The notes under the pieces are model-generated. The model saw nothing but the letters and a program-made list of their open reading frames with translations. It had not been told where the DNA came from and did not search any database. Below are positions 1,801 to 54,652 of a DNA stretch of 64,000 bases, piece after piece. The translations under genes and the position numbers were made by a program. The stretch lies in sequence record OP744025; one strand, written 5' to 3'. Each line of letters begins with the position of its first letter. Within the stretch, counting starts at the first letter, position 1. This stretch comes from Escherichia phage A5-4.

Positions 1801-1828
1801 ATAGGCAAACGAAATAGGATTTATAGAA

Positions 1829-2035: not shown

Positions 2036-2048
2036 ATTGAGGTGTAAG

Positions 2049-2198: not shown

Positions 2199-2327
2199 TC
2201 AATTCATATACTTAAAAGAAAGTTAGAAAAAGTTTTAAAAAGTGGTTGCAACAGGTATTGGATAGTAGTATAGTACTTTCAACGGGGCGAGATGGCCCAA
2301 AACGAAAAAACTTGAAAGGTGATTATC

Positions 2328-2420
2328 ATGATGGCAATTTTCTTAATTTCTCTTCTGGTCGCTGTATGTTCTGCCACTGCTGCCGCTGTACTTTATGACA
2401 CCCGCTACAATGAGGAATAA
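2328..2420 (+). CDS. hypothetical 30-aa hydrophobic peptide
   Basis: Hand-translated MMAIFLISLLVAVCSATAAAVLYDTRYNEE; aaggtga RBS; coordinates approximate. Confidence 0.3.
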   Translation: MMAIFLISLLVAVCSATAAAVLYDTRYNEE

Positions 2421-2425
2421 TAAAA

Positions 2426-2644
2426 ATGAATATTGTCAACATTACAGGTAAGACCGAGATCCTTAAGAATCTTGCGCCAGGTGAGTCCACCGTATGGATC
2501 TGCAAAGATGGCGAAGTAGAAAAACAAATGAGATTGTTTACCGCTATTTGTTGTCGGTTAAATATGAAAGTTACACAAATCCGATCGATGATTGTTAGTG
2601 TGGGAAACATTCCGACTGAATGCATAATTCTTACAAAGATTTAA
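2426..2644 (+). CDS. hypothetical early protein
   Basis: ORF track; co-oriented, tight spacing. Confidence 0.5.
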   Translation: MNIVNITGKTEILKNLAPGESTVWICKDGEVEKQMRLFTAICCRLNMKVTQIRSMIVSVGNIPTECIILTKI

Positions 2645-2720
2645 AAATAGCTTTACAACAACGATAAAATCAGTACAATACAAATCAGGCAATAAAGCCA
2701 ACTAAAGAAAGGTAAAGACC

Positions 2721-2960
2721 ATGCAAACTATTATCACTAAATTTCTTCCTCCTACGAATACCCGTGGCGCTCGCATCAAAGCAAAATGTTGGTTGACAGA
2801 TATCACTATCGCCTATCCGGTAGCCGAGATCAACGAAGCCCATAAACTGGCGGCAGAAGTGTTAATTACAAAATTGAAGATGACAACAGATATTGATTGG
2901 AAAATTGTTGCAAGTGGTGAAACACCGGACGGATCAGGTTATGCATTTATCATCAAATAA
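2721..2960 (+). CDS. hypothetical early protein
   Basis: ORF track; aaggtaaag RBS-like run. Confidence 0.55.
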   Translation: MQTIITKFLPPTNTRGARIKAKCWLTDITIAYPVAEINEAHKLAAEVLITKLKMTTDIDWKIVASGETPDGSGYAFIIK

Positions 2961-2963
2961 TTG

Positions 2964-3019
2964 TTGACAACAGCAAAGTAAGCGCGTAGTATTCATTTTA
3001 CAGGGGCGACAAGCGCCCC
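2964..3019 (+). promoter_or_regulatory. TTGACA box plus stem-loop (ggggcgacaagcgcccc) cassette
   Basis: TTGACA 2964-2969; hairpin 3003-3019; ORF starts 3029. Confidence 0.5.
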
Positions 3020-3028
3020 GCTTATCAG

Positions 3029-3310
3029 ATGAGACAAATCATGAAAATATCATTGGACGTTGCAATCAAGGCCATCGAATCCGGTTACACTCTGGTTAAG
3101 GACGATAAGGCTAAAATCGTGCATCACGTTAACAAGGAAACAGGCGAAAGCATGATCACATATAAAGCCGCCTACTTTCTCCAATCAGTAGCAGATCCGC
3201 GCCTGCAACGCCAGGTTACGGCGGCTATCGCTAAAAAATTATGTGCTTTACAGGGTACAAGTTTTAACGAGATCGCCCCGTGTTTTGATTGGTCAAGCTT
3301 GAAAAAATAG
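3029..3310 (+). CDS. hypothetical early protein
   Basis: ORF track. Confidence 0.55.
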   Translation: MRQIMKISLDVAIKAIESGYTLVKDDKAKIVHHVNKETGESMITYKAAYFLQSVADPRLQRQVTAAIAKKLCALQGTSFNEIAPCFDWSSLKK

Positions 3311-3311
3311 T

Positions 3312-3368
3312 TTGACAATACGCAGTTATCTGGTAAAGTGTACTACATAGCGCGGAAATACTTCCCGC
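3312..3368 (+). promoter_or_regulatory. TTGACA box plus stem-loop cassette
   Basis: TTGACA 3312-3317; hairpin gcggaaatacttcccgc about 3352-3368. Confidence 0.45.
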
Positions 3369-3387
3369 CATTAATGAGGATAATTTA

Positions 3388-3525
3388 ATGAAAACTTTCA
3401 ACGCAACAGCCTCGACAATTGGTTATATTATTACAGTGCAAGCCGTAGATCTGGTAGCAGCAGCAAACAAGATTAAAAGAATGATCCCGCTAGGTAGTGA
3501 ATTTTCCGTTTGGGAAGTAAAATAA
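3388..3525 (+). CDS. hypothetical small protein (45 aa)
   Basis: Hand-translated ORF ending TAA 3523-3525; aggataat RBS-like. Confidence 0.4.
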   Translation: MKTFNATASTIGYIITVQAVDLVAAANKIKRMIPLGSEFSVWEVK

Positions 3526-3528
3526 TTC

Positions 3529-3590
3529 TTGACAATAGTTTGTTACTTGATAGAATGTATTTCGTAGGGCGGGGCAATGGAGCAACGCCC
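3529..3590 (+). promoter_or_regulatory. TTGACA box plus stem-loop cassette
   Basis: TTGACA 3529-3534; hairpin gggcg...cgccc 3568-3590. Confidence 0.45.
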
Positions 3591-3608
3591 ATTAATGAGG
3601 CTAGCATC

Positions 3609-3713
3609 ATGTTAGAGAAAATTTTCACGGTTGCAGTGGTTGGCCTGGCGTTATCGGTTGGAGTGGTTGCAACTATGGCTAATATGATCCTATCTTCCCA
3701 CGGTATCGGTTAA
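3609..3713 (+). CDS. small single-TM membrane peptide (34 aa)
   Basis: Internal Met of track ORF 3510..3713, downstream of the promoter cassette; hydrophobic. Confidence 0.4.
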   Translation: MLEKIFTVAVVGLALSVGVVATMANMILSSHGIG

Positions 3714-3725
3714 GAGAGACACATC

Positions 3726-4112
3726 ATGAAAACAGAAATCATTATTGAAATCATCAACGGTTACAAAGAGGCTTTTATCTTTGCTGAATCAGCCAGGAAT
3801 CACGAAGGTGATTTTATAGATGACATGACTGATTATGATTTTTCAGATCAAGCCCAGCAACGGATCATTCGTGACGTGGCGGCTTTTTGTGACGCCAATG
3901 ATGCCGCTATCTCTGAGGCAATGAGCGACGGCGCAACAGCCAACCAGATCGGGAATGATTTACATTTTACCCGTAACGGTCACAGCGTAGGCTTTTGGGA
4001 TCGCCCTGAGATATACACTACTAACACGGCTAACCGTTTGACCAATGCCGCTAAATTTATGCCAAACGTGTCAGCCTACATTGGGAAAGATAATCTGATT
4101 TATATTGAATAA
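3726..4112 (+). CDS. hypothetical early protein
   Basis: ORF track; acidic protein. Confidence 0.55.
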   Translation: MKTEIIIEIINGYKEAFIFAESARNHEGDFIDDMTDYDFSDQAQQRIIRDVAAFCDANDAAISEAMSDGATANQIGNDLHFTRNGHSVGFWDRPEIYTTNTANRLTNAAKFMPNVSAYIGKDNLIYIE

Positions 4113-4118
4113 AAAGTA

Positions 4119-4173
4119 TTGACAAGCTGAATCAACCTGACAAGATGTATCACATAGGGGCGATAAACGCCCC
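4119..4173 (+). promoter_or_regulatory. TTGACA box plus stem-loop (ggggcgataaacgcccc) cassette
   Basis: TTGACA 4119-4124; hairpin 4157-4173. Confidence 0.5.
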
Positions 4174-4193
4174 ATAACAGAAAGGGTAATCTT

Positions 4194-4388
4194 ATGACGT
4201 TAGCAACATGTACCGGATCAAAAATTGCTTGCTTTGAGTTTATGGAAGACTACCACACGACCGCAATCACTGACCAATATATTACAGTGATCACGCGTGA
4301 CGGTATCGCCTGGCATGTTCCGGTTTATGATGGGGATACCTATGAAGTCACCGACAGCGACGGCAATACAGCTATCTTTGTTGTCTAA
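4194..4388 (+). CDS. hypothetical early protein
   Basis: ORF track. Confidence 0.5.
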   Translation: MTLATCTGSKIACFEFMEDYHTTAITDQYITVITRDGIAWHVPVYDGDTYEVTDSDGNTAIFVV

Positions 4389-4400
4389 GGGGGAAACACT

Positions 4401-4628
4401 ATGCACAATAACATCATTACCGATCGTGCCGCCACTATGCGCCCTGGCGATCGGGCACGTTTACAGGTTGGCGCTTATCCGTTCCCTACTTATGACTTTT
4501 GCAAGGTGACGGCAGTCGAAAACAATCCCTTTGATCCTGATACCGTGATCATCTGGTACGAAGGAAGGGGAAATAAGTATGAAGATGTTTTATGGCGGGA
4601 TGAGCATATCAACATTATTCGTTACTAA
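4401..4628 (+). CDS. hypothetical early protein
   Basis: ORF track; gggggaaacactATG RBS. Confidence 0.55.
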   Translation: MHNNIITDRAATMRPGDRARLQVGAYPFPTYDFCKVTAVENNPFDPDTVIIWYEGRGNKYEDVLWRDEHINIIRY

Positions 4629-4746
4629 TCGCCACCTAACAGCCTAAATAGTAGGAGGTAATGCAATCCCCTACTCAATGAGAATGGAGCGCCCTGGCTT
4701 ATGCTGGGGCGTTTTATGTTGTATGGAAATAATTTAGAAAATAAGC

Positions 4747-4803
4747 TTGACGCCGGGAATGTTAGCGCGTATAGTTTATCACATAGGGCGGCAATAGTGC
4801 CGC
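4747..4803 (+). promoter_or_regulatory. TTGACG box plus stem-loop (gcggcaatagtgccgc) cassette
   Basis: TTGACG 4747-4752; hairpin 4788-4803. Confidence 0.5.
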
Positions 4804-4823
4804 TCATAATTGGAGTAGAGATC

Positions 4824-4997
4824 ATGGCAATTCTGGCGAAAGATGTAAAAGTAGGTATGACCTTTAATGATTGTGAAGTTGTCTATGTTGCCGCGCACGG
4901 CGACGGTATCATTACCATTGAAACAGAACACTTTGATCGAGATTGTGGCGAGATGGAATATTTTTCTTGCGAGTATCATGAAAACGATGAGTTTTAA
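4824..4997 (+). CDS. hypothetical small protein
   Basis: Internal Met of track ORF 4701..4997, chosen because the promoter cassette lies inside the longer ORF. Confidence 0.4.
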   Translation: MAILAKDVKVGMTFNDCEVVYVAAHGDGIITIETEHFDRDCGEMEYFSCEYHENDEF

Positions 4998-5001
4998 ACT
5001 A

Positions 5002-5056
5002 TTGACACTGTAAGTAATTGTGTTAATATTTTTGTGTAGGGCGGCAATGTTGCCGC
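5002..5056 (+). promoter_or_regulatory. TTGACA box plus stem-loop (gcggcaatgttgccgc) cassette
   Basis: TTGACA 5002-5007; hairpin 5041-5056. Confidence 0.5.
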
Positions 5057-5077
5057 TCACTGACTGGAGCTATCACC

Positions 5078-5479
5078 ATGACCTTTACAATCACCTCTTA
5101 CACTGACGTTGCCAGCATTGCTAAAACTTTCGGCCCTGAAGCCCTTAAATATGCGGTATCCAATGGTAATCTGACAAAAGAGGAATGTTATCTGATTGGA
5201 AGCTGTAAACGTTGGGCGGTATCTCGTAACATCGAGATTGAAAACGTAAATGATGGCAACATCGAATATAGCGTTGATGCAGTATTCCAAGTTGTTGATT
5301 TAGGTGGTATCTATAATACCAATCTTAATGATGTGCGTATCGTTCGCACTGGCTTTGGGGCTTATGATGTTCCAGTTCGTGAAGCTATGGAAAAAGGTTA
5401 TATTAATCCAGCCATTTTAAGCATGATCATGACTGAGGCCAAACAACGTAACGAGATACGGGCTATCCTGGGCCTGTAA
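5078..5479 (+). CDS. hypothetical early protein
   Basis: ORF track. Confidence 0.6.
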   Translation: MTFTITSYTDVASIAKTFGPEALKYAVSNGNLTKEECYLIGSCKRWAVSRNIEIENVNDGNIEYSVDAVFQVVDLGGIYNTNLNDVRIVRTGFGAYDVPVREAMEKGYINPAILSMIMTEAKQRNEIRAILGL

Positions 5480-5500
5480 TGAAATATTAATGGAAAACTA

Positions 5501-5552
5501 TTGACACGGATCGTCAATATGCTAATATTTATCACGTAGGGCGGCAACGCCC
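5501..5552 (+). promoter_or_regulatory. TTGACA box plus stem-loop (gggcggcaacgcccc) cassette
   Basis: TTGACA 5501-5506; hairpin 5539-5552. Confidence 0.5.
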
Positions 5553-5578
5553 CAGATTAATAAAAATAGGAAATAAAT

Positions 5579-5785
5579 ATGACTACTTCAATGATCAGAT
5601 CTTCCGACATTAAAAAGGCTTTATCTGCATTGCGTTATCATCATAGAATGAAAGTAATCAACGATGAGAGCTATCTAGATTCATCGTTAGAAAGCGATAC
5701 GTTGGAAGCCATTTCAAAATTATCTGATTTGCATAAACGCATGACCGAAAGCAACCGATCCGACTTCATAGGGGGCGAAATATGA
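5579..5785 (+). CDS. hypothetical early protein
   Basis: ORF track. Confidence 0.5.
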   Translation: MTTSMIRSSDIKKALSALRYHHRMKVINDESYLDSSLESDTLEAISKLSDLHKRMTESNRSDFIGGEI

Positions 5786-6042
5786 GCATTGCAATGTTAA
5801 TCAATACCGTAGAAGAGGCGAAAGCATTAAAGTTACGTGTTGAACTGATTGATCAGCCAGGTGGAGATCTCCTTGTACAAATCTATCCCCCAAAGGATGA
5901 TTCTGGCGCTTATGATTGGTGCTACTCTGACACGTTCGAACAAGTAGACATTAAAGCAATAACATCATTTATCAATAGGGCTATACTTGAGCAAACGATA
6001 GAACTTAACGGGATGTTAAAAACACCCTGGCACATTTACTGA
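5782..6042 (+). CDS. hypothetical early protein
   Basis: ORF track; 4-nt overlap with the previous ORF. Confidence 0.5.
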   Translation: MSIAMLINTVEEAKALKLRVELIDQPGGDLLVQIYPPKDDSGAYDWCYSDTFEQVDIKAITSFINRAILEQTIELNGMLKTPWHIY

Positions 6043-6053
6043 GTTCGACAAAA

Positions 6054-6079
6054 GGGCTTGACTTGTTCAGCCCTTTTTT
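6054..6079 (+). terminator. intrinsic terminator (gggct...agccc then T6)
   Basis: Hairpin 6054-6073 followed by TTTTTT immediately after the stop of ORF 5782..6042. Confidence 0.6.
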
Positions 6080-6219
6080 GCTATTCTTATCAAACGGGCG
6101 GCACCTGGGAACAGGGGGGAGGTAATCACTGGACGACTCCGCTATATAGTGATAGTAAATAGCTATCAATAATCTCCAAAAATAAAATAAAACCTATCGA
6201 GTCTTTACAATTCTTTCTA

Positions 6220-6265
6220 TTGACACAACAACCGCATTACAGTATTATTTATCTCGTAGGGCAGC
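6220..6265 (+). promoter_or_regulatory. TTGACA promoter-like box with conserved upstream ttacaattct motif
   Basis: ctattgacac at about 6218-6227; same upstream motif recurs at about 7246. Confidence 0.4.
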
Positions 6266-6521
6266 GAAGCAGTGATGTAAAGTAGTTACTCTATGATGTA
6301 AGTTCTGAGAAGTCGAATCCGATAAAGTATCAGAAAGTTTCTAAGTTTTCGAATCGTCCAGATGAAAAAGGCTGGCAAGTGTTGAGAAAGGGCACGTTGA
6401 GTAAGTCCTGAACAGGGGCGCTCCTAGACACCTTCTACTGAGATTGCGATCGAAGTGTTAAACTGTGAGAAACGATAAAGAGTACCAGGAAAGAAAGAAG
6501 TAAAAGAAGTGAAAAAGATTG

Positions 6522-6570
6522 TTGACACGAAGGTAAGTTTTGTACTATTATCTATCTTGTAGGGCAAACT
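6522..6570 (+). promoter_or_regulatory. TTGACA promoter-like box
   Basis: gttgacacg 6521-6529; tactattat -10-like; ORF at 6596. Confidence 0.45.
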
Positions 6571-6595
6571 TCAAGAACATTAAAAAGGGTACAAA

Positions 6596-6871
6596 ATGTT
6601 ACAGCTTAACGCCAAATTAGACAAAGAAATCACTGAGTTTTGGGATATGGTAGTGGCTACAGATGTTGACGGTGTAGCAAGTCCTTACCTCAATAACATT
6701 GAGTATCATAATGTTGCAGCTATGAATGCAGAATACGCAGAAGAAGGCGGCGCGGATAAGTTTGCTAAAAGCAACGGTTTCACTGATGCTAACGACATGA
6801 TGCAATCAGTTTTGTGGCAAGCCCAGGAAGATTTTGAAGAAAAAACTCTTGAATTCGCCAGACGTTCATAA
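6596..6871 (+). CDS. hypothetical protein
   Basis: ORF track; aaaaagggtacaaaATG. Confidence 0.55.
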   Translation: MLQLNAKLDKEITEFWDMVVATDVDGVASPYLNNIEYHNVAAMNAEYAEEGGADKFAKSNGFTDANDMMQSVLWQAQEDFEEKTLEFARRS

Positions 6872-6926
6872 TAGAATAATCAAACGGGCCGAAAGGCCCA
6901 CTAATTGACCTAACAGGATTAACATC

Positions 6927-7196
6927 ATGAATCGCATCGACCAGCTTAAAGTAGTTCAGCATATGGCTTACCGTATCCTTGAAGTTCAGAAAGGGAGCAA
7001 AAAAGAAGTATGTGAGAAGGCTTATAAGGTATTCAGCCACAAAGCTGATGATTGGAAGTTGCAGAAAGTAAAAAAGGCCGATATCCTGGGATACCTTGAA
7101 GAAGAGATCCGCATTGCAGACCAAAAACAGATTCGTCGTGATGAAGCAGAACATAACCAGGCCTGGCAAGAATGGTTTAAAGGCTACACTAAGTAA
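6927..7196 (+). CDS. hypothetical protein
   Basis: ORF track. Confidence 0.55.
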   Translation: MNRIDQLKVVQHMAYRILEVQKGSKKEVCEKAYKVFSHKADDWKLQKVKKADILGYLEEEIRIADQKQIRRDEAEHNQAWQEWFKGYTK

Positions 7197-7259
7197 AATT
7201 GAAAACGGGGGGCCATATGGTCCCTTTGTAAATATTCCATTAATTTACAATTCTCCCTA

Positions 7260-7290
7260 TTGACAAGAAAGTCAATTTTGCAGTATAGTT
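7260..7290 (+). promoter_or_regulatory. sigma70-like promoter TTGACA-N18-TATAGT
   Basis: TTGACA 7260-7265, TATAGT 7284-7289; conserved upstream ttacaattctccctat. Confidence 0.5.
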
Positions 7291-7329
7291 ATATCTCTAG
7301 CAGCAAACAACAAAACAAAGGACAACGAC

Positions 7330-7749
7330 ATGAACATCAAATCAACTAATCCGGCTTACTCTTTCGATAACGCTTTTTGTCACGGTAGCGCCGCCAAAGG
7401 TTTTGAAATTGATGGTAAACTGGTTATCGTCAATGTTGATGGGGAAGAGGTTGCAGTTTATCCAGTGGCAGACGTTAAAAGCCGTTTACAATGTCGCATG
7501 GACGTTAATGAATACCGCCTTGATCCGGTTCGTGTCGTTGCCCTGGTCCTGGAAGAAGAAATTAAAGCAATGCAGCACGGTAATAAGTTTATTGGTGATG
7601 CACAGGACAACATGAAAGTAAGCCGCCACAAAGTTAATGAAGCACTGAAAGATTTTGGCTTTAAAGACCTGATTATCAAACGTGATGAAAAATTCCGCTT
7701 TCGTAATGATCTGGCAAATCGCTACTATGAAATCTATGAAGCACTTTAA
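7330..7749 (+). CDS. hypothetical protein
   Basis: ORF track. Confidence 0.6.
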   Translation: MNIKSTNPAYSFDNAFCHGSAAKGFEIDGKLVIVNVDGEEVAVYPVADVKSRLQCRMDVNEYRLDPVRVVALVLEEEIKAMQHGNKFIGDAQDNMKVSRHKVNEALKDFGFKDLIIKRDEKFRFRNDLANRYYEIYEAL

Positions 7750-7764
7750 GAGGTAAGACAACAA

Positions 7765-7787
7765 GGGGCCGCAATAGCGGCCTTTTC
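7765..7787 (+). terminator. intrinsic terminator (ggccgc aata gcggcc then TTTT), overlapping the next TTGACA box
   Basis: Hairpin 7767-7782 and T-run 7783-7786, directly after the stop of ORF 7330..7749. Confidence 0.5.
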
Positions 7788-7869
7788 TATTGACACCTGC
7801 TAACCATTCCTTTAATATGCATCTTGTAGGGCAAGCAATAACGCAAGCCCACAAATAGGACAAACCATC

Positions 7870-8067
7870 ATGACCATCGCTAATCAACTGATCGCCGTAT
7901 TGAATGAAGCCAAATCTAATGAAATCGATGTACAGATCAAAGAATTGCCCAATGGCCTGATCGGTTGCACTTGCACCTGCTTCGGAAGTGACTACACAGA
8001 GGTAAGCTCTCTAGAATCTCTCATTCGTCACTTGAAATCAATAGTTGAAGATTGGAGAATCATCTAA
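7870..8067 (+). CDS. hypothetical protein
   Basis: ORF track; last plus-strand gene before the non-coding region. Confidence 0.5.
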   Translation: MTIANQLIAVLNEAKSNEIDVQIKELPNGLIGCTCTCFGSDYTEVSSLESLIRHLKSIVEDWRII

Positions 8068-8075
8068 TCAACCAG

Positions 8076-8093
8076 GGGCCGCAATAGTGGCCC
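8076..8093 (+). terminator. stem-loop (gggccgcaatagtggccc), near-copy of hairpin at 7767
   Basis: Same hairpin sequence family after the stop of ORF 7870..8067; weak T-tract. Confidence 0.4.
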
Positions 8094-31842: not shown

Positions 31843-32290
31843 TAACTTTTTTCCAAAGCCTTTGGTTATCTGATCCCCTGAATCTTTTAGTTGTAGGTTT
31901 GTTTTCATTATACTTACCGTCCATGATTAAGTCAACGTGTTTCTTTATTTCCTCATCCAAGTCTTCAAAAAGATACCCTGTCCACACCATGATATCTTTA
32001 CTCTCACCAAAGCACAACTTTACTTCCTTGATGATTCTTTTTACAATATCAATATTCTCAGGGTCAAGAGGTTCTCCACCCATAATTGACAATCCACTGA
32101 TAAAGTTTCGAGAAAGATCTTTTTTCAATCTCTCCATATCTTCATCTGTGAATTCTTTTCCATACCTGTATGACCAAGCCTTTTGGTTAAAACAGCCTTT
32201 GCACTTATGGCTGCATCCACTAACCCACAGGGAGGTTCTTACACCCTCCCCGTTGATGAAGTCTGTGCTTTCATACCCGCAGATGTTCAA
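31808..32290 (-). CDS. nrdG: anaerobic ribonucleotide reductase activating protein (radical SAM)
   Basis: Cys cluster GCSHKCKGCFN; position immediately downstream of nrdD. Confidence 0.8.
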   Translation of the reverse strand: MNICGYESTDFINGEGVRTSLWVSGCSHKCKGCFNQKAWSYRYGKEFTDEDMERLKKDLSRNFISGLSIMGGEPLDPENIDIVKRIIKEVKLCFGESKDIMVWTGYLFEDLDEEIKKHVDLIMDGKYNENKPTTKRFRGSDNQRLWKKVNGYWSTEDEGG

Positions 32291-34365
32291 ACGTGTTTTT
32301 CCCTTTGTAAGACCTCCTGCATCTTACCCTTATTATAAGGTCTTGCATTCGGAGCCGATAAATAACCAGAAACCCGTCGGATTACTGAAATTGTTCCTTC
32401 TTCTTTATTCCCGCAACAAGGGCATTCAAAACCTTTTGCTGTTGCATGGAATTCACCACTAAAGTTACACTTAAAGCACTGGTCCACAGGTTGATTGACA
32501 CCAAAGTAAGGTATCATTTTATAACCGTAATCGATCAATGTTTCAAGTGCCTTCATATTATTTTTCAAGTTTGGCGTTTCAACATAACCAATATTACCGC
32601 CTGAACTTATTGTTGCGAAACCGGATTCATACTTCCACTTAGCGAAAGGATCTGAATGTTCCCAAACAGGTACATGAAAAGAGTTTGTAAGGTAGTCTCG
32701 CTTAATGGCTTCTGGATATTTTTCCTTCAGCTTTGTGGCGAAACGATAGCACAGACTCTCCGCAGGTGTTCCATAAAGACTGAAAGAAAGGTGTGAACGA
32801 TCTCTGAACTCGTCACACTTAAGTTTCATATGATTAAGGATCATTATCGCTAAACCCTTATGCTTTTGCCCCAAGATAATATCAACTGCTTCCGATAAGC
32901 CTACATATCCAATACTGATCGATGCGTACCCGTCATAGAATAACTTACTAATCTTTTCATCAGCGCCCAACCTTGCTAAAGCACCCTCCATAAACAGGGT
33001 TGGGTTTTGAGATGCTTTCACATTCTTGAGTCTATTGACACGAACCATGTGAGATTCGTATGCCTTTTCCATATGCTCGTCAAGGAAAGCGTAAAAATCA
33101 CCACCTTTTGCTTTGTACTCTGCTGCAATCAGCGGTAAATTTATAGAGACAACACCTAAATTGAATCTACCATCATACTTCTCTCCATGTTCTGTCGTAA
33201 ATTTGGAAAGGAAGCTCCTACAACCCATACTTGTAACTTTCCCATCTGAAGATCCAGTAACCTCTTTATTTAATGGCACAGAGATGAAGTCAGGATAGAT
33301 CCTTTCAACACAGCACTGCATTGCCATTTGTTTAAGGTCATAATTAACATCACCAGGTTTCAGGTTTACACCATCTTGCAAAAAGAAGACAACCTTCGGA
33401 AAAACTGGAGTTACCTTATCCTTGCCAAGCCCCTCAGTATGGACCTTTAGATAGTTTTTGGTAATCATTCTACCAAACTCTGAAGTTTCAAGACCCATAC
33501 TGATCGTAATGAAAGGCGATTGACCGTTAACACTCATTAAAGTATTAACCTGATAAACCAGAGTCTGCATTGCATCATACACATCTCGGTCTGTCATTTC
33601 CATTGCTAAAGATTCATTAGGTTTTCCGATCTTTTCTAAAAACTCGATATTCTTTTTGTGACTCATCTCAACATATGTTTTCAAACCCTCATCGATATGA
33701 GCACATGTTTGTCCTCCGTATTGACTGGATGCTACAGCCTGAATGATTTGAGTCAGAACTGTTGTTGCAACACCAATCGACTTAGGTTTTTCGATCTTTG
33801 CATTTCCAATCTTAAAACCATTTTCAAGCATGTCCCGATAGTTAACAAGACAACAGTTAGTTAATGGACTAACCAAATAATCCAAGTCGTGAATGTGACC
33901 ATAACCTTCATTGTGCCAAGCAGCGAGGTCTTTTGGCAAGATCTGATTAATACTGACATGCTTGCTTAAAATACCTGCCAGCAAGTCCCGATGAGTATTT
34001 ACCAAATTGCTAGGTTTGTTTGCATTCTCACGAGTAAATTCTTCAGCCGTTTGATCCAAAAATCCGCTAATATCTGAATAAAGTTTACCTTTGCCTTCAC
34101 GAACTGAATCCCGATCATGACGGTATTCAATATAGCATCTGGCAGCATCTTGAAGATTTTTCTGACTCATTAAGGTATTCTCAACAACCTTATGAATCTC
34201 TTCTACAGATATACGATCTTTATCTTCAATCTGACTAACGACTTCAGTAATGAGTTTATCAACATCGGCTTTAGTGCCTGCGGATAAAAGAGCGCCCCGA
34301 AGGGCTGCTCCGATCTTATCCGTGCACAAGGTTTCTTCACGCCCGTCACGTTTTGCAATAATCAA
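32287..34365 (-). CDS. nrdD: anaerobic ribonucleoside-triphosphate reductase (class III)
   Basis: 692 aa; C-terminal glycyl-radical motif RRVSGYL and zinc ribbon CFKCNFSG...CPCCGN. Confidence 0.85.
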   Translation of the reverse strand: MIIAKRDGREETLCTDKIGAALRGALLSAGTKADVDKLITEVVSQIEDKDRISVEEIHKVVENTLMSQKNLQDAARCYIEYRHDRDSVREGKGKLYSDISGFLDQTAEEFTRENANKPSNLVNTHRDLLAGILSKHVSINQILPKDLAAWHNEGYGHIHDLDYLVSPLTNCCLVNYRDMLENGFKIGNAKIEKPKSIGVATTVLTQIIQAVASSQYGGQTCAHIDEGLKTYVEMSHKKNIEFLEKIGKPNESLAMEMTDRDVYDAMQTLVYQVNTLMSVNGQSPFITISMGLETSEFGRMITKNYLKVHTEGLGKDKVTPVFPKVVFFLQDGVNLKPGDVNYDLKQMAMQCCVERIYPDFISVPLNKEVTGSSDGKVTSMGCRSFLSKFTTEHGEKYDGRFNLGVVSINLPLIAAEYKAKGGDFYAFLDEHMEKAYESHMVRVNRLKNVKASQNPTLFMEGALARLGADEKISKLFYDGYASISIGYVGLSEAVDIILGQKHKGLAIMILNHMKLKCDEFRDRSHLSFSLYGTPAESLCYRFATKLKEKYPEAIKRDYLTNSFHVPVWEHSDPFAKWKYESGFATISSGGNIGYVETPNLKNNMKALETLIDYGYKMIPYFGVNQPVDQCFKCNFSGEFHATAKGFECPCCGNKEEGTISVIRRVSGYLSAPNARPYNKGKMQEVLQREKHV

Positions 34366-36491: not shown

Positions 36492-37589
36492 TTAAAGTTC
36501 GAAATCGAAGTCAGATGCACTTACTGAAGAGTCAACCTGACCAGACAGATATTGACCATTTTCTAGTTCCTGTGGAGTCACCTGGACGTTTTTAGTATTC
36601 AGGTGGCTATTGATCCAAGGGATCGGGTTCTTCAGTGGCTTACCGATGAAACTATCTAAACCAACTGCTCGCATACGTTGGTCAGCCATATAATCTACGT
36701 ATTGCCACAGGATCTCTTTATTCAGTCCAACCATCGAACCATCTTTGAACAGGTATTCTGCCCAATCACGTTCTTGCTGTCGTGCCTGTAAGAACAACTC
36801 ACGGGCTTCATCTTTACAATCTTCTGCGACTCGTGCAATAAGGTCACCTTCACGACCACTCTGCATTTCGTTCAGAATATACTGAGTACCCGACAAATGC
36901 AATGCTTCATCACGAGCGATCAGTTCGATAATGTTGGTGTTGCCAGTCATGATACTACGCTCACCAAATGCAAACGAACATGCAAAACTCACATAGAAGC
37001 GGATTGCTTCCAAAGCATTAATACTGTGCATACACAGATACAGTGCTCGTGCATGTGCATAACGATCGACTGGCAAGTTCAAAGCGTAACGACTGTTCAA
37101 CTGGAATAAATCGTCATACAGCTTCGTAACTGCATCTGCACGTTCCAGAATTTCTGGAGTTTTCATGATCTCATCAAGAATTGCAGAAGGATCACTAAAT
37201 ACATTTCGAATAATGTGTGTATATGAACGGCTGTGGATTGTTTCACTGAAACCCCAAGTCTCAATCCAAGTTTCCAAAGCTGGGTCAGAAACAATTGGAA
37301 GTAATACTGCATTCGGGCCACGCCCTTGAACTGAATCAAGCAATGTTTGATACTTAAGGTTACTAATGAAAATATGTTTTTCATGATCAGGTAATCCCAT
37401 AAAGTCAATTCGGTCACGGGTCACATCGATTTCTTCCGGTCGCCAGAAGAATGCCAACTGCTTTTCTGTCAGCTTTTCAAATTTGTTGTGTTTTTGCTTG
37501 TCGTAACGAGAAACGTTAACAGACTCACCAAAGAACATCGGTTGTTCCATGAAATCAAACTGGTTTTTATTAAAAGTCGTGTAGCTCAC
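36492..37589 (-). CDS. nrdB: ribonucleotide reductase class Ia beta subunit
   Basis: N-terminus [33 protein letters not shown]...[13 protein letters not shown] closely parallels E. coli/T4 NrdB. Confidence 0.9.
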
Positions 37590-37644
37590 TTATTATCTCC
37601 TCTTCGTTAATCTGAAAACCATTATACCTGAACTTACCAAGAAA

Positions 37645-37986
37645 TCAATAGTTATTTCTTAAAATTTCAATTCCGTATCGCTTAAAAACTTCCTTCGCTG
37701 CCATAAACTTCTGTGCTGCACTTGGATTTGAAGTATGAACAAACAGAACAGCAGGATACAGGATCGGCTTCCCAAATACAAGCTTTTCTTCTAACATTTC
37801 TAAACAACGGTAGCCTTCTTTTGAATCTTCACCAAGGTCATTGTCGAAGTGCCATTCTGTTACCCGACGATACATTTTATTGGGGTCATCAAGGAACTCG
37901 ATAAACTGGTCAGAATTTTTAAACCAGATGGCATCATCATGCCCGTAATCTTTTGGATCTCTCAAATCATCAAGCCAAATCTTCAT
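37645..37986 (-). CDS. hypothetical protein between nrdA and nrdB
   Basis: ORF track. Confidence 0.55.
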   Translation of the reverse strand: MKIWLDDLRDPKDYGHDDAIWFKNSDQFIEFLDDPNKMYRRVTEWHFDNDLGEDSKEGYRCLEMLEEKLVFGKPILYPAVLFVHTSNPSAAQKFMAAKEVFKRYGIEILRNNY

Positions 37987-38044
37987 CTTTTCCTCCTGTC
38001 TCGTTTATGTGGTTTATTATACGGATTACCTTACCGAAGTCAAT

Positions 38045-38066
38045 AAAAAACCGCCCCGAAGGGCGG
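38045..38066 (-). terminator. intrinsic terminator (ccgccc cgaa gggcgg then T run on minus strand)
   Basis: Hairpin 38051-38066; A-run on plus side; downstream of the stop of gene 38073..38261. Confidence 0.65.
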
Positions 38067-38072
38067 TTAATT

Positions 38073-38261
38073 TTAATTGTACTTGTTGAGAATGTTAAAC
38101 ATATCTTTTGCAATATATTTATTGTCTCGACAACCAGCAAGGTTGTTACGAAGTGCAGCCATATAGATCTCTGTGCCGCAACCTGGGTAGGATGTGCCGA
38201 ATCTTTTTGCCTGTCGTTTAAATGTCCAACGATCAATAAAGAACCACGAGATAAATTTCAT
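38073..38261 (-). CDS. hypothetical small protein in a terminator-flanked cassette
   Basis: ORF track; strong RBS ctgaggagg; identical terminator hairpins on both sides. Confidence 0.55.
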   Translation of the reverse strand: MKFISWFFIDRWTFKRQAKRFGTSYPGCGTEIYMAALRNNLAGCRDNKYIAKDMFNILNKYN

Positions 38262-38269
38262 ATTCCTCC

Positions 38270-38291
38270 TCAGAACCGCCCCGAAGGGCGG
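38270..38291 (-). terminator. intrinsic terminator (ccgccc cgaa gggcgg)
   Basis: Hairpin 38276-38291 followed on minus strand by a T-rich run; downstream of the nrdA stop. Confidence 0.65.
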
Positions 38292-38301
38292 TTATTTATT
38301 G

Positions 38302-40560
38302 TCACAGTTTACAAGCACCTGATTCGCAGCCTTCATCCTCTTCATCTTCACCATCACGAGTTTCTTGATAGTAAACAGTCTTCAGGCCAATCTTGTAAGC
38401 ATACATCAGGTCACGCAGTACAATCTTAATCGGCAGTTTGCCACCTGGATAATCCCAAGGTTTGTAGAAGGTATTGGTCGAGATCGACTGGTCAATAAAC
38501 TTCTGGATGATAGCCATCAGGTTAAGATAAGCTGTCGGTCCGTTCATATCCCATTTGTACTCGTATACCACACCTTCCTCACCAACACCAGGAACCAGCG
38601 TCGGAAGCATACCCGCAGGTGACTTCTTAAACGTCACTGGACCACGAGGAGGTTCAATGCCGTTGGTAGAGTTAGTGATCTGGCTCGATGTTTCACAAGG
38701 CATCATTGTGGACAACGTTGAGTTACGTAATCCGTGCAATGCGATATCCAGACGCAAACTTTCCCAATCTTGTTGCAATTCTGCGGTATGCAACTGATCA
38801 ACTTCTTTCTTGTAGCGATCGATAGGTAAGATGCCACGAGAATAAGATGTTTGATCGTACCACTCACAAGCACCACGCTCTTTCGCCAACTGAACAGAAG
38901 CTTTCAGCAGGTAGAACTGGAATGCTTCCGCGAGTTTATGAACTTCATTGGCAGCTTCCGGCGAACTATATTTAAGTCCACGTTTAGCCAAGTAATACGC
39001 CAAGTTAGTCCAGCCAATACCTAAAGTACGACGCAGTAACGTTTTCTCTGCTGCAAGAACAGGGTAGTTCTGATAATCAAGCAGGTTATCAAGAGCACGT
39101 ACCGTGATCATAACAGGTTCTTCTAAATCTTCAAGCTTCTCGATCTTTCCGAGGTTGATTGCTGATAAAGTACACAGTGCAACTTCACCAGAATCTTTCG
39201 GGTCCTTAATGTTATTGATCGGAGCCGTAGGTAATGCAATTTCCATACACAGGTTAGACTGCTTAATCGGAGCCACTTCAGGAAGGAACGGACTGTTGCT
39301 ATTGCAATGGTCAACGTTCTGAATATAAATACGACCCGTCTGGCTACGTTCTTGAGCTAAACGAGTGAAAGCATCAGTCGCTTCAAGCTCTTTGCGAGGA
39401 ATGGAAGGATCTGCTTCCAATTTCTCATACAGTTCTGCAAATGCTTCTTGATCCGAGAAGAAGTATTTATACAGATCACCGTTTGCTACGTTTGGATGGA
39501 AGAAACTGATCTTGCCACCTTTCTGTAAGCGAGTATAGAAGAACTTGTTGATCTGAACACCATAATCAACATGTCGTGCACGGGTGCTTTCAGTACCACG
39601 GTTGTTCTTCATTACGATCAGGTTTTCAAAGTCCCAGTGCCAAATCGGGTAGAAGTAGTTAGCTGAAGCTTTACGCAGACCACCTTGAGATGCCCAACCT
39701 AAAGATTCTTGATACATTCGAACAATGCCAACCGTACCTGCATGTTTAACTTCCCCGCCGCGAATAGGAGCGTCCTGTCCACGAATAGCACCAAAGTTCA
39801 AACCGATACCTGCTCGCTGTGCTGCATACTTACCTTGTGCTTCAACTGCTGCAAAGATCTGGTTAATATCATCACCGGACTCAATCAGTACACAAGAACT
39901 GAATTGTCGAGTCGGGGTTCGTACCCCACCCATAATCGGAGTAGGCAGAGAAACCTTCATGGTAGAAACCATATTGTACAGATCAATCACTTTTTGTAAA
40001 CGCTTCTTAGGATCTTCTTTACTCATCAAACACATTGCGATCAGCATCAGTGCTGTCTGAGGGGATTCAAAGATTTCACCTGTTACACGATCCTTGACCA
40101 AATACTTATCTTCATACTGACGCATAGCTGCGTAAGTGTAATCAAAATCACGGTCATGATCGATAACTGTATCTAAGAATTCAATCTCTTCCTTCGTATA
40201 ATCTGAAATCAGATGTTCATCGTATTTACCGCGAGCCACAGTCATAAGAATGTGAGCATACAGTGGACGAGGTTCAAAACCACCATAAGCCTGCTTACGC
40301 AGTTTAAACAGAAGCAGACGTGCTGCTGGATACTGATAGTTTGGACTTTCTACACTAATTAGGTCCGCTGCGGACTTGATCAGGGTATCGTGGATCGCGT
40401 CTGTTTCTACACCATCATACATCTGAATCTGAGATTTCATCAGGATATCAGAAGGACTTACATCATTAACCCCTTCACAAGACCAAACTACAACACGGTT
40501 TATTTTCTCAGCTTCGAATTTCTCTACAGAACCATTACGCTTACGAACAGTAATACCCAA
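38302..40560 (-). CDS. nrdA: ribonucleotide reductase class Ia alpha subunit
   Basis: 752 aa; N-terminal ATP-cone-like region; C-terminal redox cysteine pair CESGAC. Confidence 0.9.
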   Translation of the reverse strand: MGITVRKRNGSVEKFEAEKINRVVVWSCEGVNDVSPSDILMKSQIQMYDGVETDAIHDTLIKSAADLISVESPNYQYPAARLLLFKLRKQAYGGFEPRPLYAHILMTVARGKYDEHLISDYTKEEIEFLDTVIDHDRDFDYTYAAMRQYEDKYLVKDRVTGEIFESPQTALMLIAMCLMSKEDPKKRLQKVIDLYNMVSTMKVSLPTPIMGGVRTPTRQFSSCVLIESGDDINQIFAAVEAQGKYAAQRAGIGLNFGAIRGQDAPIRGGEVKHAGTVGIVRMYQESLGWASQGGLRKASANYFYPIWHWDFENLIVMKNNRGTESTRARHVDYGVQINKFFYTRLQKGGKISFFHPNVANGDLYKYFFSDQEAFAELYEKLEADPSIPRKELEATDAFTRLAQERSQTGRIYIQNVDHCNSNSPFLPEVAPIKQSNLCMEIALPTAPINNIKDPKDSGEVALCTLSAINLGKIEKLEDLEEPVMITVRALDNLLDYQNYPVLAAEKTLLRRTLGIGWTNLAYYLAKRGLKYSSPEAANEVHKLAEAFQFYLLKASVQLAKERGACEWYDQTSYSRGILPIDRYKKEVDQLHTAELQQDWESLRLDIALHGLRNSTLSTMMPCETSSQITNSTNGIEPPRGPVTFKKSPAGMLPTLVPGVGEEGVVYEYKWDMNGPTAYLNLMAIIQKFIDQSISTNTFYKPWDYPGGKLPIKIVLRDLMYAYKIGLKTVYYQETRDGEDEEDEGCESGACKL

Positions 40561-41395: not shown

Positions 41396-42418
41396 TTATT
41401 TTGCAACATGTCCAGGAATTAACTGACGATGTTGAACAAACCCTTTCAGGTTACCACTCCAGAAGTTACCGTCGCGATCTACGTGAGTAATGCCTTCTTC
41501 CCAAGATTCTGGACACCACGGCACGTTCACCATGCTCTGCCCTTCTTCAACATCCTCACACGTTTCCTGGATCTCCTTCGCCTGATGCTCGAATGGAGAA
41601 GCGTGAACCTTTTTACCCGATACAAGCTTGGCATAAATATCCAGAGCCTTATCTTTCGTATTGTTAAGACGACGATAACTTACCTGCCCACAACAAGAGG
41701 AAGAGATAGACAAAGCTTCTTCTTCAGACAGCATAATATGATTACCATCTTCATCCTGTACACAATACCCTGCGAAAATATGTCCATCGCCCAAAGGTCC
41801 AGAGTCGAAGCAATGATCTACGTAAGGAGTATGCCACACCCCAGGCTGTAACCATTCTGGAGTAGAAGCTTTATAAGCTTCGTGCATTTTCTTAGCCAAT
41901 ACTTCGATCGTTGGATCTGCATCTGCATCAACACGTAGCCAGAAGAAGTTTTCAAATTCCGTTGCTGTAACGATAGTCTTCATCATCTGGAACGGTTCGA
42001 TCAATCGGTTAGCAATCTGCTTATGGAACCCTGCCGTCTCGAAACGTTCTGCCCATTCACAGGCATTTTCCGCAGCCTTGGCCCAAGCTTCTCGTCCGGT
42101 ACAGTACAGTTCATGACACACGCCACTTGTATCTTCCACCCAATCATACCATACTTTACCATCATGTTCTGTTCCTTTATCCTGCATACCAGGTTGGTTA
42201 GCACCAAATCGAACAGGCATTGCCATATTTTCACGGATCAGTTTAACCATTGTCTTGATCGGCACTGCACGAGAAGACATTGCATTTCGGCTAAACAGTC
42301 GGTGCGTCATAAGTTCTGAGTGAATGAATCGAGGATAGGTCAATTCAAACGTGGTGATACGAGCTTTACTACGATAGCCAACAGAATCTGCAATAATACG
42401 GGCTTCAATCATGGACAT
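41396..42418 (-). CDS. ThyX-like protein (flavin-dependent thymidylate synthase family) with atypical motif
   Basis: ELMTHRLFSRNAMSSRAVP resembles the ThyX RHR-x7-S signature but the first Arg is Thr; 340 aa is longer than typical ThyX. Confidence 0.5.
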   Translation of the reverse strand: MSMIEARIIADSVGYRSKARITTFELTYPRFIHSELMTHRLFSRNAMSSRAVPIKTMVKLIRENMAMPVRFGANQPGMQDKGTEHDGKVWYDWVEDTSGVCHELYCTGREAWAKAAENACEWAERFETAGFHKQIANRLIEPFQMMKTIVTATEFENFFWLRVDADADPTIEVLAKKMHEAYKASTPEWLQPGVWHTPYVDHCFDSGPLGDGHIFAGYCVQDEDGNHIMLSEEEALSISSSCCGQVSYRRLNNTKDKALDIYAKLVSGKKVHASPFEHQAKEIQETCEDVEEGQSMVNVPWCPESWEEGITHVDRDGNFWSGNLKGFVQHRQLIPGHVAK

Positions 42419-43425: not shown

Positions 43426-44064
43426 TTACTCTTTCCCCTCTGAGAGTTTGATAATTAATTTTGCAGTTTCAGTTAGCTTACCATTAACGTTTTCAACGTC
43501 GAAATCTCTAGGTCGTGCACTTTCAGGGAAATTCTCAGAGTAAATATAATTACGAGAATCACCTTCAAAAGTTAATTTATTACCTGTTCGTGGATCAGTA
43601 CGATGTAAACGGATCAGGGTGTAATCACCATTTACCGCTTTAACTACCGGAACACTTTCATGAATAAATCCACCATCAGAGCTAATAAATGTACAAGTAT
43701 AACCATCCATTTCCATACTTTTCGCAATATCTTTAACACGCTTGGCAAGAGCAACACCGAAGTATTCTTCCCCGAAGAGAGGCTTCGCAACATTCTCCGA
43801 GATGTGGATCAGCCAGTTACGTGGGGACACTTGTTTACCTGCAACATTAAAATATGGTTGAGGTACTTCTTTATAATCACGGTGGTAAAGTGCATCCCAC
43901 AGTTCACGATTAATACCTGCAATACGAATAGCTAGATCGATAAGGGAACCTTTAAACTCCACATGAATACCCACGTTGTTGCCTACGGTAACTAACTGAG
44001 CGATCTCACCAGCAAGAGCATCTTTACCAGAAAAAGCAGGACCATTCAAATTGATAAATTTCAT
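43426..44064 (-). CDS. deoxynucleoside monophosphate kinase-like (T4 gp1-type)
   Basis: P-loop-like GPAFSGKD resembles the T4 Dnk G..RSGKD motif. Confidence 0.5.
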   Translation of the reverse strand: MKFINLNGPAFSGKDALAGEIAQLVTVGNNVGIHVEFKGSLIDLAIRIAGINRELWDALYHRDYKEVPQPYFNVAGKQVSPRNWLIHISENVAKPLFGEEYFGVALAKRVKDIAKSMEMDGYTCTFISSDGGFIHESVPVVKAVNGDYTLIRLHRTDPRTGNKLTFEGDSRNYIYSENFPESARPRDFDVENVNGKLTETAKLIIKLSEGKE

Positions 44065-44089
44065 ATTAATCTCCTCTCAGTTTCACAAT

Positions 44090-44111
44090 AAAAAACCGCC
44101 CCGAAGGGCGG
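44090..44111 (-). terminator. intrinsic terminator (ccgccc cgaa gggcgg)
   Basis: Same hairpin as at 38051 and 38276; downstream of the stop of gene 44123..45217. Confidence 0.65.
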
Positions 44112-44122
44112 TTAAATCAAAA

Positions 44123-52258: not shown

Positions 52259-52337
52259 CGTTTCATATCCTCTTCGTTGGTTGATATAAGGATTATACAG
52301 GATTTGTGGTGGGTGTCAACAGGCAGATAAAGAAAAA

Positions 52338-52353
52338 CCGCCCCTAAGGGCGG
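52338..52353 (-). terminator. intrinsic terminator (ccgccc ctaa gggcgg)
   Basis: Variant of the recurrent terminator hairpin, downstream of the stop of gene 52365..52607. Confidence 0.6.
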
Positions 52354-52364
52354 CTTAAAAATTT

Positions 52365-53243: not shown

Positions 53244-53328
53244 TTTGTATTTCTCCTCTTTAATGTTTAAATAGTAAGTTAACTTCTTTGCTTCGATGCG
53301 GTAAGAATACCCCATTCAATATCTTATG

Positions 53329-53673
53329 TCAAGCAGGATTTTTAAGTTCTTTAAAAACAACCTGGAAGACTGGGATTTCATCACTGATCTCTGACACAAG
53401 CAGAGCTACAGTTTCACAAGGTAAAGTACACGTTGCAAATGTTTCATAACCCGTATGGATCTTCAAGGTTAAATTACCTTTTAGTCCAATTTGGAACTGA
53501 CGGACAAAAGGACTTAATGCACTGACATAGATCTCATGATAACCGTTTGGACGACGAGCATATTTTTTACCACTCGCAAGACCTGTAATAACTAAACCAT
53601 CAAAAGAAATTTTAGTCTGAGAACCATCATACACAGGTAAGCCAGGTTTTTCAACATCTTTTTCTTGATTCAT
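53329..53673 (-). CDS. hypothetical protein
   Basis: ORF track. Confidence 0.5.
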   Translation of the reverse strand: MNQEKDVEKPGLPVYDGSQTKISFDGLVITGLASGKKYARRPNGYHEIYVSALSPFVRQFQIGLKGNLTLKIHTGYETFATCTLPCETVALLVSEISDEIPVFQVVFKELKNPA

Positions 53674-54599: not shown

Positions 54600-54652
54600 T
54601 TTAATCTCCTTTCGTTTAACTTGGGGCCATTATACATGACCCCTTATCATTG

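Follow-up and report, generated by a model that had tools for sequence, protein, structure and literature searches.

A hairpin-flanked small gene at the nrdA-nrdB junction of a Vequintavirinae coliphage as putative terminal cistron of the nrdA transcription unit

Genes and hairpins at the junction

The window, the 64-kb stretch of DNA analysed here, belongs to a Vequintavirinae coliphage in which all genes of the nrdA-nrdB block lie on the minus strand. Region 37000-39500 was 96.5-97.5% identical to Escherichia phages A7_1, vB_EcoM-LTH01, UPEC06, W70 and A73 (Vequintavirinae), and in these five records the genes of the block all occupy the strand matching the minus strand of the window. The features below are all on this strand and are given in the direction of transcription. 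The nrdA gene (38302..40560), assigned from the open reading frame list and the annotation of 97%-identical relatives, encodes the class Ia ribonucleotide reductase (RNR) alpha subunit of 752 aa; its orthologue in L013 carries the Pfam ATP-cone/Ribonuc_red domains. The TGA stop of nrdA is followed by CAAUAAAU and then by hairpin 1 (AACCGCCCUUCGGGGCGGUU, 38274..38293), after which CUGAGGAGGAAU leads to the ATG (38261..38259) of the next cistron, ORF62 (38073..38261). The Shine-Dalgarno sequence GAGGAGG (38265..38271) begins 3 nt after hairpin 1, and the whole gap between hairpin 1 and the ATG measures 12 nt. The UAA stop of ORF62 and the nucleotides AAUU precede hairpin 2 with its U-tract (AACCGCCCUUCGGGGCGGUU UUUUAUU, 38040..38068), assigned by terminator scan, T-score and synteny, of which the UUUUAU leads straight into a sigma-70-type promoter, TTGACT-16-TATAAT (38016..38043; 11/12 matches in a promoter scan). 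It is followed by a cREC_REC gene (PF20274, Pfam 5e-18; 113 aa, 37645..37986) and by a second sigma-70-type promoter, TTGATT-16-TATAAT (37621..37648; 10/12 matches, kept in six relatives), directly 5' of nrdB (36492..37589). The latter encodes the class Ia RNR beta subunit of 365 aa, as judged from the open reading frame list and the annotation of relatives.

Both hairpins fold at about −15 kcal/mol and carry a C(UUCG)G tetraloop; loops of this type are exceptionally stable. Hairpin 1 (38293..38274, −15.1 kcal/mol) lies between the nrdA stop and the ribosome-binding site of ORF62 and has no U-tract. The sequence right after it is CUGAGGAGGAAUAUG, its tail on the minus strand, UUCUGAGGAGG, runs into the AUG, and the tail as scored, UUCUGAGG, has 3 T among its first 8 positions. 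Hairpin 2 (38068..38049, −15.7 kcal/mol) is followed on the minus strand by UUUUUUAUU. Efficient intrinsic termination needs a U-tract after the hairpin. When an intrinsic terminator is taken as a G+C stem-loop with an immediate U-tract on the transcribed strand, hairpin 2 is a predicted terminator; hairpin 1 has an adequate stem and fails on its tail. An earlier note on this DNA had described a 62-codon gene with a strong ribosome-binding site between two identical terminators with T-runs. The gene is real and reads on the minus strand, and its ribosome-binding site was confirmed as the GAGGAGG at 38271..38265. The flanks, however, differ from that description: only hairpin 2 has a minus-strand U-tract (T-score 4.86 versus 2.15 for hairpin 1), and the T-runs seen on both sides are those of the plus strand, on which none of the genes lies.

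Together, hairpins 1 and 2 form a repeat of 20/20 nt (AACCGCCCTTCGGGGCGGTT), or 23/24 nt with the flank, at a spacing of 225 bp, and this direct repeat of 23/24 nt encloses precisely one ribosome-binding site, one open reading frame and one hairpin. Across the window, the 16-mer CCGCCCCGAAGGGCGG has three exact occurrences, at 38051, 38276 and 44096, and one more at 52338 that carries a single loop change, so that the reuse of the hairpin claimed earlier was confirmed at both distant sites. Allowing up to two mismatches gave five matches where 0.04 are expected, and none of 100 shuffled sequences reached five; the two-mismatch match at 34292 falls within the coding region of the open reading frame 32287..34365 and was rejected as a hairpin copy of the family. 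The third exact 20-nt copy (44094..44113), which has a U-tract, stands directly 5' of a ribosome-binding site and a gene. It is conserved at the corresponding position in A7_1 and W70, and no promoter was evident at this copy. The loop variant (UUAG; 52335..52356) has a U-tract and an adjoining promoter, TTGACA-17-TATAAT. A shorter relative, AAACCGCCUUCGGGCGGUUU, with a T12 tail, expected from the earlier note near 12814, was located at 12811..12830, and UUCG terminators with a shorter or different stem occur at 12811 and 29008. The d'Aubenton-Carafa-type T-scores of the minus-strand copies at 44094, 52335, 12811 and 29008 range from 4.8 to 7.2. ORF62, its GAGGAGG site and the hairpin copies are thus real and well above chance.

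The protein family of ORF62 is small and confined to phages. The only PHROG match of ORF62 was phrog_14771 (3.6e-5), a family without assigned function; Pfam returned nothing credible (Herpes_TK_C at 18 bits, under its cut-off), and neither Pfam nor PHROGs revealed a nuclease domain. The AF2 model shows three helices (pLDDT 74.6), and a fold search of the PDB with this model found nothing better than E = 7. A profile built from four sequences yielded 52 clusters of homologous 49-80-aa proteins, and an exhaustive HMMER search of 1.84 billion representatives retrieved 46 family representatives, the matches being proteins of 55-80 aa and one repetitive 849-aa match that is probably spurious. Residues F7, R11, C44, R45, I50, D53, M54 and I57 are invariant in the family. 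A Cys/His zinc site was considered and rejected, since C44 alone is kept throughout the family, and H47 and C55, present in most members, are missing in ORF62. Likewise, an RNR-specific role, as the position after nrdA might suggest, is unlikely, because most family members reside in phages or regions without RNR genes. The family, of about 50 clusters as defined here, recurs beside nrdA and in lambdoid nin regions.

Codon variants of ORF62 across the six close relatives comprise 10 synonymous and 3 non-synonymous changes, which points to purifying selection and suggests that the gene is probably expressed. The GAGGAGG (38271..38265) and its position relative to hairpin 1 are invariant in six relatives. 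Base composition does not set the gene apart: its GC content is 37.6% against 40.8 +/- 3.6% for local 189-nt windows, and its GC3 is 39.7% against 39.6% for nrdA. Homologues were found in the small-ORF clusters of Mulvp2 and Jedunavirus KpTDp1. Leaving aside the window clade and L013, the nearest homologue, at 45% identity, comes from a lambdoid nin region, with DnaB on one side and NinX/NinB/NinG on the other. In 12 of the 14 IMG/VR loci of the family the gene stands without a flanking G+C hairpin; the hairpin bracket is therefore a property of the nrdA-nrdB locus rather than of the gene.

The nrdA-nrdB junction in related phages

In a module alignment of eight lineages, two of which have a gene-free spacer between nrdA and nrdB, the stem of hairpin 2 and its T5 run were invariant at the same syntenic position, and the −35 TTGAC and the −10 region (CCGTATAAT..ACCACA) were conserved. 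The promoter at 38016..38043 is orthologous to the nrdB promoter of the Certreviruses. This conservation of hairpin 2 and promoter in eight lineages identifies them as the ancestral nrdA-nrdB junction, and hairpin 2 is predicted to end the nrdA transcription unit as its conserved intrinsic terminator. A terminator and a sigma-70 promoter divide nrdA from nrdB in every relative, by which arrangement the two genes are predicted to form distinct transcription units in all these phages. The earlier placement of ORF62 inside an nrdA-nrdB operon is not compatible with this arrangement.

The nrdA-nrdB region measures 3.4 to 7.6 kb in the 30 records that cover it. The spacers, which were read directly, hold zero, one or two genes. 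In CR9 and SSBI34 the spacer is gene-free, and nrdA is followed by the hairpin with its U-tract, the TTGAC...TATAAT promoter and nrdB. CR8 and KaOmega carry a 56-aa open reading frame 8 nt past the nrdA stop, followed by the same terminator-promoter module, and in the metagenomic L015 a 58-aa open reading frame overlaps the nrdA stop (ATGA) ahead of the same module. No upstream hairpin was present before the small open reading frame in KaOmega, CR8 or L015. In P7_Pc, a poor-tailed hairpin (CUUUGGAG) comes after nrdA, and then an HNH endonuclease gene (phrog_953, 1e-66), a 56-aa open reading frame and the terminator-promoter; the T-run of the hairpin upstream of the endonuclease gene is poor and interrupted, and its stem is of the same kind as in the window. 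L013, with a NrdA 90.6% identical to that of the window, has the gene order of the window including cREC_REC. The spacer of the window clade holds ORF62 and the cREC_REC gene; the latter is missing from the spacers of CR9, SSBI34, CR8, KaOmega and P7_Pc and is a second accessory gene, inserted 3' of the conserved promoter. The nrdA-nrdB junction is thus an ordinary accessory-gene hot spot of the Vequintavirinae and not a self-contained inserted unit.

Presence and absence of ORF62, which the earlier note proposed to compare between related phages, does differ at this larger distance, with CR9 and SSBI34 lacking the gene, but not at close range, as all six close relatives carry it and so does the more distant L013. 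The Certrevirus 56-aa open reading frame is homologous to ORF62 (31% identity, E = 4e-8). Small-ORF identity falls with that of NrdA, from 96.8% at a NrdA identity of 99.7% to 58% at 90.6%, 59% at 89% and 29% at 76%, as expected of a fast-evolving, vertically inherited gene of long residence. ORF62 is, on the other hand, 39-45% identical to homologues in unrelated phages versus 27-31% to the Certrevirus open reading frame, which fits replacement by a foreign allele; with some 60 residues to compare, this is weak evidence either way.

The hairpin itself varies at the upstream position. Hairpin 1 is identical to hairpin 2 in the window and A7_1 only; in UPEC06, LTH01, W70 and A73 it reads CCACCCUUUGGGGUGG. 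A compensatory change from G-C to A-U keeps the stem in these four of six relatives, with a fold of −13.6 kcal/mol. In L013 hairpin 1 has decayed to background (−6.9 kcal/mol, z = 0.2). As a site of recombination, the hairpin received divided support: a 24-nt direct repeat does flank ORF62, but the three insertion-type indels examined after blastn comparison of the window with W70 and A7_1 are plain insertions of open reading frames at gene junctions, with the hairpin at none of them. In more distant relatives the spacer differences do involve the hairpin. A junction with ORF62 deleted (nrdA 3' flank, hairpin and T-run) gave zero matches in IMG/VR, where the intact junction was also unmatched, and a pattern covering both the deleted and the intact junction gave zero matches for either form in JGI metagenomes.

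Expression of ORF62 and origin of hairpin 1

The anatomy, synteny, homology and sequence features of the junction are direct readings of the genomes. From them we infer, with a probability of about 0.6, that ORF62 is the terminal cistron of the nrdA unit, that hairpin 1 is read through and likely a scar of recombination, and that transcription terminates at hairpin 2. A promoter scan of the minus strand found no sigma-70-like site from 38262 to 39106; given this and the gap of 12 nt in front of the ATG, transcription of ORF62 is expected to come from upstream, through hairpin 1. A phage-specific promoter of a type other than sigma-70 could, however, be located in the 3' end of nrdA. Since termination needs a U-tract and hairpin 1 has none, read-through is the probable outcome. 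Efficient termination at hairpin 1 would preclude expression of ORF62, yet the gene appears to be under purifying selection, which argues against its being insulated by terminators, as the earlier note had it; the terminator downstream is, moreover, the resident, syntenic one of nrdA. After nrdA, the host RNA polymerase would thus pass the U-tract-less hairpin 1 and transcribe ORF62, translation of which would be independent, from its own strong Shine-Dalgarno sequence. Hairpin 2, as the ancestral nrdA terminator with its U-tract, would then stop transcription, and the ancestral sigma-70 promoter fused to it would restart transcription toward nrdB.

As to origin, the terminator-promoter junction would be a permissive site at which accessory genes have repeatedly been gained, lost and swapped. 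Hairpin 1 would be a duplicate of the terminator stem, left behind by recombination at this site, either by insertion of a cassette or by replacement of an allele, in the ancestor that the window clade shares with L013. Its lack of a U-tract would explain why it is tolerated, and in the window clade it may have been kept as a weak attenuator or mRNA-stability element. A repeat that encloses ribosome-binding site, open reading frame and one hairpin is what would be expected if a circle or donor with one stem had recombined with the resident stem. The vertical signal, however, suggests that the open reading frame is older than the duplication of the hairpin, which is awkward for an origin by cassette insertion. 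With the open reading frame already in place, a hairpin of about 30 nt must have joined upstream of it by another route. P7_Pc offers a parallel, as there an HNH gene with an upstream poor-tail hairpin sits between nrdA and the small open reading frame.

Alternatively, hairpin 1 may be a selected RNA element, an attenuator or a processing or stability determinant that sets the ratio of NrdA to ORF62 expression, a possibility to which we give lesser weight. With its UUCU tail, hairpin 1 could still halt a useful share of polymerases, and, if an endonuclease cut the A/U-rich tract beside it, it could cap the 3' end of the nrdA mRNA or the 5' end of the ORF62 mRNA. The G-C to A-U change together with a G.U wobble preserves the stem in UPEC06, LTH01, W70 and A73, a UUCG or UUUG tetraloop is kept, the position relative to the Shine-Dalgarno sequence is invariant in six phages, and the layout of hairpin and ribosome-binding site before the HNH gene of P7_Pc is analogous; the compensatory change could equally well denote a functional hairpin 1 as a scar. 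Against selection, hairpin 1 is at background stability in L013 despite the same gene order, and the Certrevirus relatives have the homologous open reading frame without such a hairpin. The compensatory change is, in addition, a single event, which gene conversion from hairpin 2 could mimic, and the identical copies in the window and A7_1 could themselves be hairpin 2 recopied in this way. An Rfam scan of 37400-38500 gave sub-threshold chance matches and no family for the element.

The scar may, more specifically, reflect a process that is still at work. By analogy with systems discussed below, terminator stem-loops of 20-24 nt could act as portable recombination sites, with ORF62 and one hairpin excising and re-integrating as a mini-circle. 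We regard this as doubtful. If it were true, the HNH cassette of P7_Pc would have arisen in the same way, as a second case.

It is improbable that the hairpin copies are the result of convergence on an optimal compact terminator, with a 6-bp G+C stem and a C(UUCG)G loop, and so uninformative on recombination. Convergence would account for the same stem at the non-homologous sites 44094 and 52335 and beside an endonuclease gene of P7_Pc, for the UUCG terminators of other build at 12811 and 29008, and it would agree with the established stability of the loop. The 20/20 identity, however, covers the A-U pairs as well and the 23/24 identity also the flank, the copy without a U-tract has no cause to approach a terminator optimum, and a stem identical across phages whose nrdA genes share only about 72% DNA identity speaks for conservation or copying.

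Finally, a reading along the lines of the earlier note, in which ORF62 is a moron-like, autonomous unit that entered an nrdA-nrdB operon recently and is insulated by two working terminators, keeps in its favour the variable spacer content, the presence of the family in unrelated phages, the flanking direct repeat and the terminator-like appearance of both hairpins on the plus strand, but is very improbable for a gene that has no promoter of its own in the sigma-70 scan, no U-tract at hairpin 1 on the coding strand, a resident downstream terminator and no deviant GC, that is found in each of the six close relatives as well as in L013 (NrdA 90.6%) and has homologues at the same site in Certreviruses and, overlapping the nrdA stop, in L015, and that lies between genes which appear as separate transcription units in all relatives.

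If ORF62 is the terminal cistron of the nrdA unit, as we favour, the annotation of the locus would be corrected from an insulated cassette within an operon to a transcription unit of nrdA and ORF62 with a conserved terminator-promoter module at its end.

Relation to known systems

The closest known analogue of the locus would be the PeSL elements of T4-type phages, in which a terminator stem-loop and promoter motifs flank ORFans (Arbiol et al. 2010, PMC2839356; Comeau et al. 2014, PMC4122927) and for which excision and insertion through mini-circles have been proposed (PMC2839356). Hairpin 2 with TTGACT-16-TATAAT, and likewise the copy at 52335, combine a stem-loop with a sigma-70-type promoter, small open reading frames without assigned function and a variable gene content occur nearby, and two copies around one small open reading frame correspond to the proposed substrate of the mini-circle. 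The window phage, on the other hand, belongs to the Vequintavirinae and is not T4-type. Its repeat is 20-24 nt long, with three exact copies and one loop variant per 64 kb, whereas PeSL measure about 100 bp and are found at many intergenic sites of hyperplastic regions. Further differences are that hairpin 1 is without the promoter part and none is evident at the copy at 44094, that the presence of ORF62 is not polymorphic among the six close relatives, and that the hairpin borders none of the three indels inspected in comparison with W70 and A7_1. Were the hairpins portable recombination sites, PeSL-type shuffling would extend beyond T4-type phages, to promoter-less repeats consisting of a hairpin only. 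A demonstration of hairpin-mediated cassette exchange would thus broaden the PeSL concept; otherwise the locus represents ordinary phage genome architecture.

Morons are recognised by their own promoter, their own terminator and a deviant GC content (the concept of Hendrix, summarised in PMC2920897). ORF62 resembles them as a small gene added between two conserved ones, where relatives differ in content: CR9 and SSBI34 lack it, and the window clade, L013, CR8, KaOmega, L015 and P7_Pc carry it. The family is, moreover, common to unrelated phage classes, including the lambdoid nin region. This much of the moron-like description stands. ORF62 departs from it in lacking a promoter of its own in the sigma-70 scan and a deviant GC content, in residing in a lytic phage, and in its apparently long residence there. 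A good predicted terminator does follow the gene, but it belongs to the resident unit and is also found in the gene-less CR9 and SSBI34.

The same junction is a known landing place of selfish and accessory genes, and both it and RNR genes are targeted by mobile elements in T4-type phages and Certreviruses. In T4, the free-standing homing endonuclease gene mobE lies between nrdA and nrdB (PMC2790892), RNR genes are frequent targets of mobile elements (PMC3045599), and Certrevirus CB7 carries a load of HNH genes (PMC7344957). The HNH gene of P7_Pc occupies exactly this spacer. ORF62, in contrast, has no HNH, GIY-YIG or LAGLIDADG domain, and there is no evidence of its homing. The comparison documents the nrdA-nrdB junction as a hot spot of accessory genes in the Vequintavirinae too, as it is in T4-type phages.

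With respect to the hairpins themselves, the window copies are intercistronic G+C stems with a C(UUCG)G loop or a one-base loop variant, four of them with U-tracts. Hairpins with C(UUCG)G tetraloops were reportedly described by Tuerk and co-workers in 1988 from intercistronic regions and intrinsic terminators of phage T4. The copies in the window are of the same kind, the only oddity being the copy without a U-tract that stands 3 nt before a Shine-Dalgarno sequence.

Genes of the nrdA|nrdB spacer and their counterparts

Beyond the clade of the window and the more distant relative L013, the closest homologue of ORF62, the 62-codon gene that follows nrdA, was found at 45% identity at L021 3001-3186 (IMGVR_UViG_2617271201_000010). 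This homologue is located in a lambdoid nin region, its neighbours being a DnaB-type helicase gene on the one hand and NinX, NinB and NinG on the other. The second gene of the spacer (37645-37986, minus strand) encodes a cREC_REC domain protein (PF20274, 5e-18) and is inserted ahead of nrdB, on the downstream side of the ancestral nrdB promoter, with a second promoter after the gene. In rV5-like phages its DNA homologue sits elsewhere, adjoining an RNA ligase gene. The label 'RNA ligase 1 and tail attachment protein' carried by this gene in the relative UPEC06 looks like a mis-annotation.

At the 3' end of nrdA, the 56-aa ORF present in CR8 (L006) is cleanly missing in CR9 (L003). The CR9 junction reads CTGTAAG|TAAACCGCCC, whereas that of CR8 reads CTGTAAG|GGGCTGT...AAAATAG|TAAACCGCCC. 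Comparison of the two junction sequences suggests an exact deletion or insertion at the short microhomology (T)A(A/T)AG.

Hairpin copies, their flanks and other extra genes

Hairpin 2, the conserved terminator of the nrdA unit, has a counterpart in Pectobacterium phage P7_Pc (L035 1495-1535; record 41468-41504), where AAAATTAACCGCCCTTCGGGGCGGTTTTTTATT matches the window hairpin and its flanks at every position of a 33-nt stretch. The site is unrelated to the spacer: it is 3' of a putative restriction/HNH-type endonuclease gene that neighbours the DNA polymerase gene, and a TTGAC promoter again comes next after it.

The hairpin copy at 44094 (window 44060-44113, minus strand) is followed by a ribosome-binding site and gene start that read CTGAGAGGAGATTAATATGAAATTTATC, close to the CTGAGGAGGAATATGAAATTTATC that follows hairpin 1, upstream of ORF62 (window 38250-38293, minus strand); both proteins begin with MKFI. 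This likeness, which is not present in L013, could reflect chance or a common junction.

Three extra-ORF sites were seen when the close relatives W70 and A7_1 were compared with the window: about 195 bp extra at window 28610 in both, a 517-bp ORF immediately 3' of the promoter 53257-53285 in W70, and a 330-bp ORF with an ATGA junction at window 58221 in A7_1. The terminator hairpin bounds none of the three.

Other stem-loops of the window

Closely spaced G+C-rich hairpins of another kind than the terminator stem of the nrdA unit occupy window 239-8650 on the minus strand (for example 240-256, 1012-1032, 3003-3019, 4157-4173, 4788-4803, 5041-5056 and 5537-5554). No more than 0-3 nt after each of them comes a motif resembling (C)TATGTGAT, TGATGTGAT or CGTGATAAAT, and the counterpart of this region in relatives is crowded, according to their annotation, with small hypothetical ORFs. 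The series looks like a repeated hairpin-plus-motif element with a putative regulatory role.

Finally, sigma-70-type promoters with stem-loops inside them were observed on the minus strand at 54623-54643 and about 53290-53340. One of the two stem-loops is GGGGTCATGTATAATGGCCCC, the loop of which holds TATAAT; in the other, TTGACA-N17 is followed by a GGGGTATT..CCCC stem covering the -10 box, and in W70 this stem is perfect. Both match the 'stem-loop overlapping the -10 box' subclass of PeSLs, the promoter-early stem-loops of T4-type phages (PMC2839356, PMC4122927).
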